A stretch of DNA of 60,720 bases, filler included, from Asterionella formosa (Eukaryota): the NCBI GenBank assembly GCA_002256025.1. It is 5 parts of 5 records of this genome, joined end to end, with 100 filler letters (N's around TTAATTAATTAA, not from the genome) between each part and the next. Parts side by side here need not be neighbours in the genome. Positions count along the whole stretch, not along the records: positions 1 to 12,074 come from NKIB01007881.1; 4 more parts are not named here. One strand, 5' to 3'. The position numbers were made by a program, and so were the translations under genes. Below, piece after piece: positions 4,815 to 48,667 of the stretch; positions within the stretch are counted from its first letter, which is position 1, and the number at the start of each line of letters is the position of its first letter. Under the pieces are notes generated by a model. That model did not search any database. It saw only the letters and a list, made by a program, of their open reading frames with translations, and was not told the DNA's origin.

Positions 4815-5450
4815 GTAATACTGATTCCAATTCCAATTCCAAATTAATACATGTGTCTCTTCTTAATATCCGTTTAATAAACCAACCCGACCGGCTTGTT
4901 GTTCCACTAAAAAATTAGCTTTAATCTGATTTAGAGACCAATCTGTTTTGCTTGGTCTGCCATTGGCTTCTTGTTCGTTTTGCTTATAGTAGTACCGTTT
5001 GCTTAAAGTAGGTTTGCTTAAAGTTCATTTCTTTAAAGTAGCAATTTTGCTTACTTTTGTGTTGGCATCATTTCGACGCTGCTGCCATCACAGTCACATA
5101 TGACCTATTTAATCATACTGTAGGTAATTATGATACTGAATAAGCACCGGAAAACATGTACTGGTAGTTAGTAAGTATGTAAGATGAAGAAGTGAACAAA
5201 GTATATTGCATACAGATACTTGATAATACATATGGCTGGATTCATGCACAAGGTACCTGGTACGATATGTACCTGCTCTGGAATATGATTATTTAGCTGA
5301 AATACTGCTATTCGTTTGTATATATAATACGCTATAGTGTAGTAGTAACGGTAGTTGTGTAGTTGCAAGCAGCTGGAGAATCCTTCATCATCATGTTGTT
5401 GCAGCATTGACCATGATGAAAATAGTGAATATTCTGATGAAACATGAGAA
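4815..5450 (+). repeat. Dispersed repeat family B (other copies at ~23730-24242 and partially ~2215-2400)
   Basis: Shared gattccaattccaaatt.at.catgtgt.tct, tttaataaacca.c.gacc, ctttaatctgatttag, ggattcatg.aca.ggtacctg and gctggaga blocks. Confidence 0.75.
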
Positions 5451-7349
5451 AGCAGTATCCACGACAATTGGTGATTCCAGAGCTTCCAACTCATTGTTTT
5501 TGTCTTTGTCTTCGTTATCAGAAAATTTATTGCTTTGTGCAGCACATGCAGCACTGGCGCAATTTCTTCATCAGTGACTTCTTCATTTCTCTGTTTTCTT
5601 CTTTATTCTTGTTAATATTTGGCATATCGCCATTCTTGTATCCTTCTGCTTCTTGCATTGTGATAGCGCTCACTGTAGTGGAAAAGGTGTTAACCTTCTT
5701 TTCTTATTTTCTCTTGTTACTGTCTTTGCCTGGTTCTTCTTCTGTTTGCGTTATGTTGATACCATTGCCGTGAATTCCCCAACTGTATGTAGTGTTTGTT
5801 GAAAACGCCCAATCGACATCCATGCAATTGCTGGCTTTCACCATTCCTGCTTCGTTAATCTTTGCTCGCTTTTCCATCTCCTCCTCTTTTTGTCGGATTT
5901 CATTACAATCTTATGGTTCTGTCCACATGAATGATTTGTGCTTTCTTTGACTTGTTGGCCGCTTGGATAGCGCCTTTCGTCATCGGTCGTTTTTAGGATT
6001 TTTTTCAACTTTTTGGACCCGGGGGTCCCTGTAGCTGACGTACCACTAAATTCTGTGATCAGCACTGTAGTACTGTGGTAGCCTTTCTTAAACTCAACTT
6101 ATACTTGGCAAAAAAGTCAAACATGACATAGATAGTACAATCATGAAAGAATTATTCTAATGACACTAATATTGACAATGAAAATTTTGAGTCGCCAATG
6201 GCACATTTTTTCATATAATTTAGAGATGCACCATTTTTAAATGACAATGGTTCTAGCAGATTTGAAACTTTCACAGTAGCTGCGAAACTAATAAGATTAC
6301 GACTAAACCAATAACTTGAATAATCGAGGAAAAGGATGCGAAATAAATCTTTTATCAAATGAAAATTGATTCATTGTGAGTTGGCACTTTTTATAGTGGT
6401 GGAAGCCGACAAATGTGAAGTATACTGTCGAAACCAGGGTGTTGCCCTGTAATTATGTGTAGTAACCTCTTCATTCATCATACATTTGAGTCCCAGCCTG
6501 AGTGTATTACTCCTTTATGAAATGCTACTTGCATTAGTGAACCGGTATTACTGGCATATTGCTCACATACCGGGAGACCGATGCCGGTAACTCACTTTCT
6601 TTTGTCCATCATGACATAGGCAGCTATATGTACGTAGGTATTAAGGGCTATGTTTTTACAAGTCTACCAGTAAGCAAGATTTTGCTTAAACTTCTTTGGC
6701 TTACAGTTGAGCCGATTTGCTTAAACTCAAATGCCGGTATTCCCTATGTACTTTAACCCAAAATTACAATTTGTTGGAATCTTTTTTTCTTTTTTCGAGT
6801 TTTTTCCCGTCGTGCTTCTTTCGGTCAGTGGGCGCAAACCGTTCGAAGTTTCAAACTTTGATTTCTCAAAGACTCCTTAGTCTGGAAATATTTGTCAGTT
6901 TTGGGAATGAGCAACACAAAGAAGCAAAAATTTCTGCAACTTGCTGATATACTAGGTACTTTGTTGGTGAAAAAGTAACCTTTCCAATGAATGGATGATT
7001 TGCATAAAAGCTAGCCTACTCCCACTGTTGGGAAATTTTTGCAACATGCTGGGCAATTAAACTGTGCCAAGCCACTCACTTTTGAGAACCCGACAGTAAA
7101 TGCTCAATATTAAGTCTATGTGTAACGATGCTGGTCGGCAAGGGCTGCTTTGGTTACATTAGTATATGTAAGAGAGTATAGCACTCAATAGCAATAAATA
7201 CATGTGAATACACCATGGCAATAATAATTAAGGGTGATTGAATTTACTTGGATTTGACTAGCCAGCCTCGTGGCTTAGCTCAAACCAAACTGGTTTGCTC
7301 TATTCAAGATTGGCTTACTTCAAAAGCAATAAACAAGAATAAACCACCC

Positions 7350-9797
7350 AGGAGAGCAGAGGCGTAAGCTGTTTTGATACTCCTGGCGATATGTCCACTA
7401 ACCCAGAACATGTATAGTTCATTACCGAAATCTAGGACTAACATTTAGCCTAGTGAAGGGAACTGTCTCTTCAGACCATTTACCAAAATGTTCCAAATTG
7501 ATTCTATCCAATGCAGATGAATTTAAAGGCATCATATTGCCAAGGTTGCTAACAAAATGGTAAATCAAAAGGCAAAGGCCGACAAGACAAAGAACTGGTA
7601 GGGTATTGGGGTTGGCAGTCATGACTATCTGGTATGTCTGAGTTATCTTGTCAGCAAATTTACCATTGTACCCTGGAACAAATATAGCAGTATTCTATGT
7701 AAATGGAAACAATGGTGCAGTGCTCACTACAATCATCCCCTTCTATGACTCAATTAGAATTCCGGGATTCGACAGTTGCAGTTTATTTTGATCACAGCAG
7801 CAGTACATAGCATATGATCCTGTTGCAATGTGTTGTTCGGTTCCATCTCATCATAGGAATACTACATGCACTATGCAAATCCTCGCAGATTTCAATTTCT
7901 TCACAATAAGTCTGCCACCACCAGCTGGCAATGTGCAATGGATGCATAGTAGGTGACATTTGACAGATATGTTGGATAAACTTGTTTGGTGCATTGGAAA
8001 GCCAGGACATGGACGGTGAAATCCACTTCATGTTTCTCCTCGACAACCTACCTAGCAAGGGCACTTATTCTGTCCTACAGAGGCCGTCGGATTGCAGTGT
8101 ATCCGGCAGGCTTACAGAGGGATTGAAAAAGAGTCAAAAATAAATCAATTGTAACTTTTTAAGCTACAATTCTCATGTTCGTGGCCGAATTATGTTAGGA
8201 AAATGAACACATGATTCAAATAATTGAAAAAAACTTGAAGGTAATCCACATTTCGTGAAGGACATAGAAAAATGAGATAGTCATGCGTCGTGGCCTTGCA
8301 TTCAAAAGATTCGCCGTTATACTCTAAGCGTGAAAACGCTGAGAGTCGGGAATCTTCTTCTTTGGTCGGGCAATCTTACGATTGCGCTTCTTGGCCTTCT
8401 TCGGTTCTCCATTGTCGTCGTTAGCACCTGCGCTCGCCGCACTAGACCCGCTTCGATCGCTGTCATAATCTGACGAGTCTGTGGAAGATTCCCCAAATGC
8501 CTTTTGTTTGTGAAAAATGCAGCATCGCTTGGAAGATTTCCGACCCATTCCTTCATTGTCGACCACGGCCTCGTCCCTGGCAAAAACAAATACATCAAAG
8601 CCGTGAAAAATCAATTGGTATCATACTTGCATTGCAACTATCACCGATCACTTACCATCTGACTAAAGGGCGTGCTCTAAGGGATAAGGTCAACATTTCC
8701 TGATCGACAGATAAAGGGGGCAACACCGCTGATTCTGTGATGGTCACCGTTGTTGATTGGCCATCAGCTACTGCTTCGCTTGTTGAGAATTGCTGCTCAA
8801 TCGATCCAGATTGATATTGTGATGCAGTTGAAGCAGTCTCTGGTTGCATAGCAGAGAGACTTGTTGGTAAATTGGCTGTATCACTCATCTTACAGTACCT
8901 TTATGATGCTTGGTTCCTGCAGTTTCTTGATCCTGACAATTATATTGTTGCTCCTTTCACATTTTCTGGGGTAGTTTGCCTGTAATGCCTGTCGACCGGT
9001 ATACCTTGTACCTGGTACCGAAACTGACAGTACATAAAATTATCTTCCACTCGTTCAAAATAGGGTTCGAGTTCGAAGGTGCAATTTTCAACATTTTCAA
9101 CCATTATGAATTCGATAATAGAACCTCACATCTTAGTCAATCTACCATAACAGTTTTTGGAAAAAGTTTTTAGATCATCTGCTTTGGCCACTCCGAAAAG
9201 AAAAGTCGTTCTAGTACTGTTTTATATGTTCTGGGATAAAACTCGTCAGCTTGGGGGCCCACTGACAGTTCAACTCAAAATGATGGCTGGGTGCATTTCT
9301 GGGGCCATCAGGTGGACTCTGTAAGCCTGTTATTAGCAAAAATCCTGACCCTATTGTATGTACTATTTTTTGCGTCTTAAAAGCTTGTTAAAATCGCATT
9401 GACCATGTTGGTATTATTCAGTTGGTTTACTCAACAAGAGAACAATCCCCTGCACTGCTTGATTTATCAATATCTCCACCATGAGCAGTGCTACTAGTAA
9501 CTAAATCAAGTGGTGTGGGAGCACACTATTTGGTTCATCTAAGAAATATTTATTGTTGAGCATGGCAGATCCTAAAGTAGCTTCCCGTCGACATAGTCCC
9601 AGGTACCATGTTGAAATCCCAGACCCATGACAGTTTTGCTCTTTCGTCTTTTCAGCAATGTCACGTTTTATAATGCGTGGACGGTTTCGTTCTTCTTCGT
9701 CCCCATCAATGTACTGACGGAATGATTCGTCCTCCTTCAGCATTATCAAATACTCTTCGGCTGAAAATTTATTCATATGAATGCTAATTATATACAA
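7350..9797 (-). pseudogene. Highly decayed Harbinger-type ('plant transposon protein', PF04827-like) transposase, interrupted by ~8070-9180
   Basis: N-terminal ...PRIIKRD...LNNKYFLDEP (9501-9797); QKCT and ADEF near 9240-9305; LIYHFVSNLGNMMPLNSSALDR...VPFT (7422-7622), weakly resembling WIWHAFFGMPGSNNDINVLDR...VPFT. Confidence 0.4.
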
Positions 9798-9804
9798 AAT
9801 TTGA

Positions 9805-10156
9805 GGGACCGGTTTAGTGGTTTAGCATGTTGCCTTTGATCTGAGGTTGTGAGGTTCGACTCCCGCAACTTTTTTGAGAAGTAATTGTTGGGTTCGACTC
9901 CCACACTCCTTACCGTCCCGCACGGTCTTGCCTGGTGTGCAAGAAATAGTGGGTTGCCCCCTTCCCCGCCTACAAGCAGCTTGTGCCGCCTTCCTACTAG
10001 GCGGTCGGAGTTTCCCCTAACACTGCGGCTAAGACGATCACCTTTCGCAAAAGGTGGTTAGAGACTCATGTAAGCTAACAAAACTAGGGAAGCACAGGTC
10101 TAGTTGGCAGGTAGCACAATGAAATACTTGCCTTGAAAGAGGGGAGTACGAGTGAG
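9805..10156 (+). mobile_element. tRNA-headed structured element, probable tRNA-derived SINE or Pol III ncRNA
   Basis: A-box-like TAGTGGTTTAGC (~9815); two B-box/T-arm hairpins with GGTTCGACTCC (9853-9863, 9891-9901); T6 at 9870-9875; several stems downstream; flanked by identical AAATTTGA at 9797-9804 and 10157-10164. Confidence 0.65.
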
Positions 10157-12074
10157 AAATTTGACTGAAGCTAAAATTTAATTGTACTGGTAGATATGGT
10201 GGCTACTTAATGTAGCTTCAGGATGCACCCAGCCAACCATACATTTAAAGTTCATTGACTTGTTTGGAGAAGTATCAACATGTATTTGCGAGGTTTTGGA
10301 TACAATCTACCACCCAACCGACAATCAGCGCGCACCAAGATGGAATCTACAACCTAGACCACCCTTGCGTGTTCTTCTTCCAAGCCTCAACACTTAAGAA
10401 AGAAAAAACCGATTGACTCTATCAGTCCATTGCATTTATTGCACATAAGTGTAGGAAAATGCCTAGAGAATTTGGGAGTACCTATTTTCGCTTAACATCT
10501 AGCAAATCAACAATTGATTTTATCAATCATAGAAACCTAAATTATTAAAAACTCCTTTTTTGCTAAAAAAATTGGTACACCACCAGGAACACAGGTATAT
10601 GCATAGTACTACTTAAATAACTTCCCTTCTATTCACCATTTACCATGTATAACTACAATCTGATAGCGCTTTTAAGCTACTCTATTTGTGATAGGGCAAC
10701 CGGCATGGCGTTTTCTGGCGTGACCAGCCTGGGAGTTTGAAAATACTAACCCTCCTGATAACATACGTATTGACTTCTGACACTGTGAAGCGGGGATGTG
10801 TTGCGTTGTGGGACTCTATCAACCTGCTATCAATGTGTGGAGGAGTGCCAAGTGGTGCTGAAAAAGTGCTAAAGATGCATTGTTGTGGGTCATTCTACCT
10901 CCTTGTCTCGTGACCTGAGAAGAAGGTGTGAATATATGTTTGTGCTTCTGGTGGTTTGGTTGACCACACTATGGGTTGTCGGGGTGCCGGTGGGGTGCTG
11001 TTGTTTGCTAGGAAAGCATGTGTGGATGTGTTGCTGCCCCTTTCTTGCCTTTTGTGCCAATTCCTCAAAAAGAAACTCGGCTTTCTCCGAAAAACGTTGT
11101 TTGGAGCCTAAGTTGGATTTGAGAAGATCCTCCAGCAGTTGTTGAAACAGATGTCTATCTTGTAGGCATAGACATATTTCATATTGTTGAGCATACAGGG
11201 CTGTAATCCGCACGTCAGATTCACCATCTACCATTACATACTGACTTCAAATTTTTTAGACAAACAAAGGTGAAAACCTGAATTTACTACAAGCCGGTTA
11301 TCCATTTCATCATTGCCACCATGGTCTCTTTTGAGGTTGCAAAGCGAGCAATCGATGATAAATAGATGCTGTTCTGGTATAGAATTCTTGTTCTTATGCC
11401 TATTGGTTTTCAATGGGTCAAGGAAAAATGGGGGGGGGGCTGGAGTAAACAATCCCAAGGGGGCATGATTCTACAAAAAACGTGACAAAATAATAAAAAC
11501 AAGGCCAAATTCACCTATTTCTAGAACACTTAGAACATATAATATATTCACCATTCGATTTGGAATAATTTTTAGCTAGAAGGGGCTAGACAATCATTGT
11601 AGAAGGGGCTAGATAATCATTGGAGCTGTGCGCTTCATGAGAGGCAGTGAATTAAAGTTTGGTTACAACTATGCATGAATGGAGGGAATACATATTGCTG
11701 TACTGGTACATACATTTATCCTGTATGTACACAAGTGTGAGGATTGAAGTCAACGCATGTGAACTCCCTTCAATTCTGATATTTGGAGGAAATGTTGTTG
11801 AAAATTCAAACAAATTAGTATATAAACTAGCTAAATGGTATCTCACAATAGAGTGAATACAGCAAACGAAAGCGACATGAAGGTTGCTGTCTATTGCCGT
11901 GGTGACACACATACTGATTCTTCTAAATAGCAACACTTCAAAATTTTAGTGTATACCTAAAAGGATTTTTTCACCATCAGATATCTGAAGGCTTTTGCAG
12001 TCACACTATTAGACTTACTCCTACAACAACTGCCAGTGAATTGGCGACTTTTCGTTTGTCATGTGATTGTGAAA

Positions 12075-12174
12075 NNNNNNNNNNNNNNNNNNNNNNNNNN
12101 NNNNNNNNNNNNNNNNNNTTAATTAATTAANNNNNNNNNNNNNNNNNNNNNNNNNNNNNNNNNNNNNNNNNNNN
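12075..12174. other. Artificial contig spacer
   Basis: N44-TTAATTAATTAA-N44 (100 bp, stops in all frames). Confidence 0.97.
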
Positions 12175-18224: not shown

Positions 18225-19005
18225 GTCAAGTTGATGCGACATCTTTTGGACAGAGGGAGTACCAGCATACCAGTTGCTTAGCAGTATGCTACTATATTCT
18301 GAAGCCAAATATTGAAAAGTTAGCAGATACAACCAGGTAAAATACCATGACAGAGTTTACTCTACCTGCTAGTATGTATGTATCACATGCCGCTCTTGTG
18401 ATGTACAAACTAGAGCAAAATGATGCAGCAATTACATTAGGTTGTGATCTTGCAAAGATTGTATAATATTCCTTTATGTTCCCTCCCAATTTCTAGACCA
18501 TGAGAAATGGAGGGGTAATAGTCAGTAGCATAAGGTCTTGTCGGCAGACCATGCTATGAAATTCCATGTCTAACTCCACAGTCTTGGAAAGCGCGTTACA
18601 AATTAGTTTAATTTTTTTACTTATCAGGACTTCCATACAATTAAGAGAGTTGCAAATCAATTGAAACCAGCATCAAAATTGCATTTGTTATCATTTGAAA
18701 ATTGGGCAATATAAAAATCATATGTAAACTACTAGTATCAAAACTGTGATTATAGATTTTATTTCTCTATCACAGCCAGTGGTATGTTTTGTCAAAAAAG
18801 TCCACCAATTGACCATGTTGGATGATGAGATAAACAACACCAATTTTCTCCAAGCTTTGATTGCTAATACCGGTGAGAAGGATTTTAGTTGGAAGCAGTA
18901 ACATGCAATTAACCGGTATACTTTTTAGGACATCTCCATTGTAACATGGCTGTTGTCTTTTAAATAGTACCAGGTACTCCCTCTGTCAGATAACAGTTGC
19001 ATTAT
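18225..19005. mobile_element. Two outward-facing Stowaway/mariner-type termini
   Basis: GACAGAGGGAG|TA at 18249-18261 and TA|CTCCCTCTGTC at 18975-18987. CTCCCTC(C/T)GT next to TA is the classic Stowaway/mariner end. Partner ends not found. Confidence 0.5.
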
Positions 19006-24242: not shown

Positions 24243-24342
24243 NNNNNNNNNNNNNNNNNNNNNNNNNNNNNNNNNNNNNNNNNNNNTTAATTAATTAANN
24301 NNNNNNNNNNNNNNNNNNNNNNNNNNNNNNNNNNNNNNNNNN
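24243..24342. other. Artificial contig spacer
   Basis: N44-TTAATTAATTAA-N44. Confidence 0.97.
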
Positions 24343-36406: not shown

Positions 36407-36506
36407 NNNNNNNNNNNNNNNNNNNNNNNNNNNNNNNNNNNNNNNNNNNNTTAATTAATTAANNNNNNNNNNNNNNNNNNNNNNNNNNNNNNNNNNNNNN
36501 NNNNNN
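36407..36506. other. Artificial contig spacer
   Basis: N44-TTAATTAATTAA-N44. Confidence 0.97.
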
Positions 36507-48567: not shown

Positions 48568-48667
48568 NNNNNNNNNNNNNNNNNNNNNNNNNNNNNNNNN
48601 NNNNNNNNNNNTTAATTAATTAANNNNNNNNNNNNNNNNNNNNNNNNNNNNNNNNNNNNNNNNNNNN
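48568..48667. other. Artificial contig spacer
   Basis: N44-TTAATTAATTAA-N44. Confidence 0.97.

Follow-up and report, generated by a model that had tools for sequence, protein, structure and literature searches.

The element at positions 9805-10156 of the window, the 60,720-nt stretch of Asterionella formosa DNA analysed here, is very probably a decayed copy of a tRNA-derived short interspersed element (SINE). A tRNA-derived SINE had already been proposed in the sequence-only reading of this DNA, and the proposal is now backed by copy number, a fixed 5' start, duplications belonging to each copy, 5'-truncated copies and a LINE-like tail. A search of the organism's own genome (68 Mb) gave 736 candidates, and among those listed at least 41 matches reached 83-100% identity, most of them from base 1. 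Alignment of 30 loci yielded a consensus of 363 nt that starts with the A matching 9804 and ends with a T-run ~21 nt past 10156; the family is short, non-coding, dispersed and multi-copy, with a fixed 5' end. Exact motifs of the tail, core, head and second tail occurred 116, 183, 141 and 22 times, respectively, while the reversed-pattern controls gave 0 each. Based on exact-match rates in independently sampled copies (16/49 for the core, 13/45 and 19/62 for the head), the total was estimated at ~460-560 copies; the tail-based reverse estimate (2/34) was left unused, being biased since already known loci had been excluded. Because the assembly holds duplicated loci (10/137 hits were dropped as duplicates), independent insertions are fewer than copies. 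Variation between copies was mostly CpG decay, and the window copy also carries many CpG changes. Family matches in public runs came mostly from freshwater. The literature that we searched holds no description of this SINE family, or of tRNA-SINE anatomy in a diatom, with most subscription journals, and Repbase, Dfam and SINEBase, outside its scope. Tandem SINE copies were observed in three loci (L009, L305 and L319), with a shared duplication between the copies in L009; in L305 and L319, a C-type copy comes straight after an A-type one.

As read from the sequence, the family is composed of a tRNA(Ala-like) head, a run of six to seven T, a second tRNA 3' half, a body of ~190 nt and a LINE-related tail of ~65 nt. 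In the window copy, the tRNA-like head (9804-9866) begins at the fixed family start and contains an A box (about 9811-9822) and a first B box or T-arm (about 9849-9866, loop 9855-9861). It can be aligned with tRNAs of the host, those for Ala and Gly giving the best fit: tRNA-Ala(TGC) and tRNA-Gly on organelle-like contigs ranked first, followed by nuclear tRNA-Ala(AGC), in a comparison of 30 of the 62 listed tRNA loci that does not fix the source tRNA. The head is followed by the internal T-run (9870-9875; T6 here, T7 in the consensus, the length of a Pol III terminator) and by a linker with the second tRNA 3' half (9876-9911), which holds a second B box with its loop at 9893-9899 and an acceptor-like strand. 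The T6 run between two T-arm hairpins was described correctly in the earlier reading, as were their TTCGACT loops, which lie at 9855 and 9893. The shared loop sequence is true of the window copy but not of the family, whose consensus has TTCGATT in the first loop, the C being a change in this insertion. The element was also said to be no tRNA, and ARAGORN indeed found 0 tRNAs in the window and a full cloverleaf was absent. The accompanying claim that it has no acceptor stem was not confirmed: in the consensus, the 5' end and the strand that follows the second T-arm form a partial acceptor-like pairing (6/7), seen by eye and also in a weak Rfam tRNA-Sec alignment. The second SINE copy in locus L154 is devoid of consensus 42-83, thus having one T-arm and no T-run, as a deletion or a monomer form. 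Downstream, the body (9912-10111, consensus 109-297) is common to subfamilies A, B and C up to the tail swap at consensus 297, and the LINE-like 3' tail (10112-10156) is clipped, containing a hairpin at 10125-10148 with a GAAA loop at 10135-10138 but neither the end of the outer helix nor the T-run.

The element is GC-richer than its surroundings, as described earlier (51% versus 39% and 36% in the 500-bp flanks), and the five stems assigned to it were fully paired as placed (7/7, 10/10, 7/7, 8/8 and 7/7). However, its description as densely structured was not borne out, as the window copy folded with a z score of +0.35 and 63/100 shuffles were equally stable. The hairpins at 9985 and 10036 pair fully and are features of the family; in the latter, two lineage changes keep pairing as U-G, but one in subfamily C disrupts a pair. 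The 10082/10099 stem rests on changes peculiar to the window copy and drops to 5/7 in the consensus, which makes it an accident of this copy. Both the 10106/10125 stem and the putative long-range 10012/10140 pairing are in competition with the tail hairpin at 10125-10148, which has the better support, and subfamily C is without the 3' strands of both. Two lineages carry changes that break the former, which in a 62-row tail alignment was 62.1% paired with a covariation of 0.156, compared with 0.160 for its own +1 slide (half of the rows are non-SINE), and the latter showed no change on both sides.

The family carries a clear insertion signature. Checking the copies for their own duplications, as had been suggested, gave a target duplication (score of at least 9) in 64/102 unique full copies with both flanks, against 0/304 mismatched flank pairs. 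The duplications were 13-18 bp long in 56/64 cases with a mode of 16 bp, and began with T in 55/64 and with TA in 32, the first-base count being somewhat inflated by the T-tail. Upstream of the insertions there was a mild T excess (fraction 0.44-0.53 at -21 to -18, and 0.30 at -10). Up to 31/81 tail-sampled copies were missing the 5' part, including some internal deletions or alignment breaks, and a few copies (L151, L158 and L168) contained inverted partial segments resembling twin-priming products; such truncated copies and inverted pieces are expected for target-primed reverse transcription. The reverse-transcription signature of a simple 3' tail and 5'-truncated copies is thus seen in the family, the window copy being without the tail end. 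In addition, the empty site of another SINE copy was found in two outside runs (joint 1472-1853). We infer that a LINE endonuclease and reverse transcriptase would recognise the tail and use an AT-rich site to insert the element through target-primed reverse transcription, which would leave the observed duplication of ~16 bp with T first.

The host of the window copy is a multi-copy, non-autonomous DNA-transposon-like repeat, bounded by a 12-bp terminal inverted repeat on the left (9285-9296, the reverse complement of 10223-10234) and its counterpart on the right (10223-10234), where the host matches stop. AAATTTGA flanks the element at 9797-9804 and 10157-10164, as the sequence-only reading stated. 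This 8-mer is single in 8/10 distinct host-repeat copies that are free of the insertion, the other 2 failing to align at the site, so the duplication at the window locus is real. What it does not do is bound the element exactly: the family begins 1 base earlier (A at 9804) and extends ~21 nt beyond 10156 to its T-run, and family copies continue past the right AAATTTGA, an outcome that the earlier reading had itself named as speaking against its proposal. Likewise, the absence of a tail holds for the window copy but not for the family, which ends in a T-run. Since the window copy is without the last ~21 nt of the consensus, ending before the final strand of the tail outer helix, the 8-bp repeat probably represents what is left of a duplication once 15-16 bp long and not a family boundary. 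The left duplication was probably 9789-9804 originally, starting with TA, of which 9797-9804 is still duplicated, and the 8 bp at 10157-10164 would be what remains on the right. Further upstream, AATTT lies 19-23 bp from the left duplication, as in many family members. The TA-starting 15-16 bp at the left, this upstream AATTT and the stop before the last strand of the outer helix together point to a deletion of ~29 bp. The copy landed in the DNA-transposon repeat, as the empty sites show; later it would have lost the end of its tail together with the initial half of the duplication on the right, and it has since decayed. The deletion model has no clear microhomology on its side, and the 8-bp duplication may instead have been made at insertion.

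The locus L002 (G000:C8102) has the same flanks and the same 3' loss as the window copy. Early 3' ends were flagged in 11/72 core-sampled copies, some of which are internal indels. Internal priming was rejected as an explanation of the lost 3' end, as the expected bases were absent by eye. About 390 bp of the host repeat present in L002 is missing in the window at 9763/9764, and part of 9564-9763 is another repeat that also occurs at G000:C14420. Paired 44-N runs around a 12-bp spacer were observed at 12075-12174, 24243-24342, 36407-36506 and 48568-48667; the window is joined from separate pieces, and coordinates beyond 12074 are therefore not neighbours of the SINE copy. The window copy itself is a broken relic of little importance alone.

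Comparison of the SINE tails with 356 sequences revealed a family of ~945 bp whose 3' end is related to them. Its end motif had 66 matches with 1 mismatch allowed (control 1), and 50 loci were examined. Full copies measured 934-1016 bp in 12/14 loci where the 5' end was found, duplications of the kind seen for the SINE, scoring at least 9, were present in 8/12 with the 5' end found (two are probably one insertion), and some copies are internally deleted with both ends retained. Against the 3' end of this family, the A1, A2 and B tails scored 55, 68 and 62, exceeding the maximum of 44.5 among 1000 shuffles, while the C tail scored 31.5, which was matched by 20/1000 shuffles. In the proposed comparison of the 3' end with LINEs, the tail proved homologous to the end of a non-autonomous LINE-like element, but no RT-coding LINE with this tail was found among the loci covered. 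The ~945-bp family contains broken ORF-like stretches without a Pfam domain. We read it as a LINE derivative that is non-autonomous and internally deleted and would use the same enzyme as the SINE; derivatives of this kind are described in PMC5786205. In its copies (L051:68-1050, L356-L405), a frame-preserved 24-residue ending without a Pfam match is common to diverged subfamilies, with an (AT)n-like end, and this ending is probably the C-terminus of some LINE protein. A piece of the family lies at about 5168-5602 of the window on the minus strand (match 5464-5519), where an ORF resembles its ORF-like stretch. SINE copies with still other 3' sequences were seen in L246 and L275, the tail of L246 being similar to the end of the ~945-bp family.

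Significant structure was restricted to the 3' tail. The A/B tails folded with z scores of -3.55, -3.24 and -2.92 (1, 1 and 2 of 300 shuffles were as low), and the C tail with -1.1. For the tail alignment, 30 SINE tails and 32 ends of the ~945-bp family were used, that is 62/66 picked sequences, 4 having been dropped for length or label; the pattern employed favours rows with an intact outer helix. In these 62 rows, the proposed structure was paired in 87.1% of cells with a covariation of 0.204, whereas no slid control exceeded 46.6% or 0.101. The loop-closing pair was maintained in 59/59 distinct rows in three forms, and in 78 full A/B copies it was U-G in 28, as in the window copy, A-U in 22, U-A in 18 and other in 10. 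The outer pair of the GAAA-loop hairpin was C-G in 29 and U-A in 23 of the 59 distinct rows, and one pair of the outer helix was unpaired in 36/59. Among 8256 column pairs the loop-closing pair had the highest mutual information (0.606), with lineage-linked non-pairing columns reaching 0.588. RNAalifold, run on these 62 rows, did not predict a consensus structure. Support for the hairpin thus comes from ~3-4 lineage events and not from a formal covariation test. These results support a predicted GAAA-loop hairpin with compensatory pairs, which may be an ordinary 3' recognition hairpin. The full RNA would present it on the outer helix, where the partner enzyme would bind.

A tRNA-like promoter followed by a T-run of terminator length is what a cellular non-coding RNA gene or a tRNA pseudogene would show, yet 29/30 head-sampled copies extend beyond the T-run, neither ARAGORN nor Rfam made a call, and the hundreds of dispersed copies, their separate duplications, empty sites and CpG decay leave this explanation with next to no probability for the family; for the window copy it is refuted by the empty host sites. 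The T-run is also a difficulty for the SINE explanation itself, since an internal T6-7 should halt Pol III, which would start at +1 from the internal promoter. According to PMC3141230, T4 is enough in mammals and T6-7 is usual in yeast, and read-through at T5 has been observed in human cells. By eye, T-runs within 30 nt downstream of host nuclear tRNA genes were 4-6 long; at least 6 T follow the head in 65/102 full SINE copies, and the run is present in every subfamily. Given this length and the copies that continue past it, either read-through yields the mobile RNA or the host Pol III needs longer runs. A head-only copy ending at the T-run was found once in 30 head-sampled copies and had no visible duplication, giving no evidence of terminated retrocopies. 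In three RNA runs (X8, X16 and X18) the SINE was present in contigs with its flanks covered as well, the contigs showing neither strand nor ends. We put forward, as a tentative proposal that we think unlikely to hold as a whole, that the T6-7 run functions as an attenuator of Pol III and that the 109-297 body is a diatom-specific central domain pairing the head with exchangeable LINE tails. If the run attenuates, most transcripts would end as a tRNA-like RNA of ~70 nt, only read-through would give the jump-competent RNA of 363 nt, mobility would be set at termination, and the family would offer a simple test case for Pol III termination limiting SINE mobility.

The second part of this proposal, which is compatible with the SINE explanation, takes the body as a constrained central domain of the CORE or Ceph type, whose protein-binding or stabilising fold was kept during tail swaps. 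Subfamily C, the older one (20/139 body-covering copies), retains positions 1-297 and switches directly afterwards to a different tail in two variants. A possible long helix in the body (9954-9986 with 10092-10110 in the window), predicted to end at the tail-swap point, has one pair that may be compensated when A is compared with C. In 6 C copies, its 5' strand has lost 2 nt and its 3' strand is altered such that pairing is restored. Within A/B, non-CpG lineage changes fall mostly in the head and the final 70 nt. However, the z scores of the subfamily consensuses (-0.8 to -1.5 at full length) were only -0.46 to +0.48 for the 149-297 domain, the C lineage change G240A disrupts the strongest hairpin, no diverged homologue was found elsewhere (10 metagenome matches were 3 of this family and 7 by chance), and the low divergence between subfamilies suffices to explain a conserved body, so that we rate a constrained domain as rather improbable. 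That the body is a self-cleaving ribozyme, or catalytic RNA of another kind, is far less credible still. Many hairpins can be drawn in the window copy, and the subfamily A tail has a C-G-A-A step after its hairpin, which we take to resemble the J4/2 strand of HDV. Nevertheless, a strict HDV descriptor that we built ourselves for the nested double pseudoknot with P1.1 and the J4/2 catalytic C (4 matches in the code-made control, 8/200 in shuffles) gave 0 matches on both strands of the four subfamily consensuses and the window copy, relaxed matches differed between A/B and C and also occurred in 69/200 shuffles, the hammerhead core was absent, and the candidate catalytic C335 is G in subfamily B. 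The Rfam search suggested earlier likewise returned no family near the gathering score, on the window stretch or on 11 loci including near-consensus copies. With a body that folds like shuffles, the suggestion that a mobile Pol III RNA carries an unrecognised structured domain, acting as ribozyme or scaffold, is unsupported. Certain LINE clades do bear 5' ribozymes, but by the argument in PMC5786205 one inside a SINE would sever the head, and most copies retain theirs. Less remote than either of these, though still doubtful, is a bipartite, RTE-mobilised family with a body partly derived from an RTE 5' UTR. Like plant Au-like/RTE-related SINEs, compared here by signature and not by sequence, the family has a T-rich 3' end and duplications starting with T, which fits the Au/RTE rule in PMC6007223; unlike theirs, its T excess lies at about -20 (-21 to -18) rather than near -10, and the T stretch ~10 nt upstream is lacking. 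According to PMC5786205, reports of bipartite LINE derivatives without an ORF are confined to RTE, Ingi, Vingi and R2, but the ~945-bp family has ORF-like remnants, a type that the same source also shows in other clades. By eye, three short blocks of the BOVA2/BovB 5' piece (PMC5786205 supplement) occur in the same order as in consensus 73-132; one of them is the tRNA T-stem and acceptor, and a chance match is plausible as the likeness came from a directed search with 6 motifs. Moreover, the SINE body had no match to the 5' part of the ~945-bp family (44-145/200 shuffles scored equally high). A 5'-truncated subfamily C fragment was also observed at about 18527-18615 of the window on the plus strand, comprising the body end and the C tail with 85% identity to the C tail consensus.

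Among known systems, the family is closest in plan to the tRNA SINEs with a LINE-derived 3' tail described in PMC5786205, sharing the A/B-box head, non-coding body, LINE-type tail and tail exchange between subfamilies. It differs from those described there in the doubled B box with T6-7 in between and in its unicellular algal host. The short 3' hairpin common to the SINE and a LINE-like element resembles the stringent-type recognition of 3' stem-loops by zebrafish LINEs (PMC4176376), binding here being putative. Most unicellular eukaryotes were formerly believed to lack SINEs (PMC5859163, PMC7466962). Among diatoms, putative SINEs of Phaeodactylum (13 copies, 1,454 bp; PMC5859163) and of Cyclotella (PMC7466962) appear in the available parts of these sources by annotation class, without anatomy or partner. 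The present family is a defined diatom case, with subfamilies, a signature at its targets, a point where tails were swapped and, in the tail, a hairpin common to the SINE and a LINE-like element.

For the autonomous partner, no RT or endonuclease domain was found in 29 ORFs near the ~945-bp family, and 20 five-kb stretches upstream of it contained none except one unrelated LINE fragment. The SINE tail was not found in 50 RT loci (RVT_1) among the best 150 of 224 candidates; the loci seen belonged to a single LINE family, a single gypsy family and telomerase. PF14529 gave 0 matches, as did PF20049, the latter without a working control. Loci from the A/B tail motif (87/116) and all 22 C-tail matches matched the SINE consensus or short tail pieces, with no LINE end demonstrated among them. 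When the C-terminal peptide of the ~945-bp family served as protein query, 1/20 candidates matched, another copy of the same repeat, and viral contigs contained none. A young LINE family with an endonuclease, an RT and a C-terminal CxxC motif was observed in many near-identical copies (L055-L068, L086-L093); its 3' UTR lies beyond the contigs seen, and it may be the partner of the SINE. The 1058-residue open frame in L085 (G000:C10287) is a telomerase reverse transcriptase.
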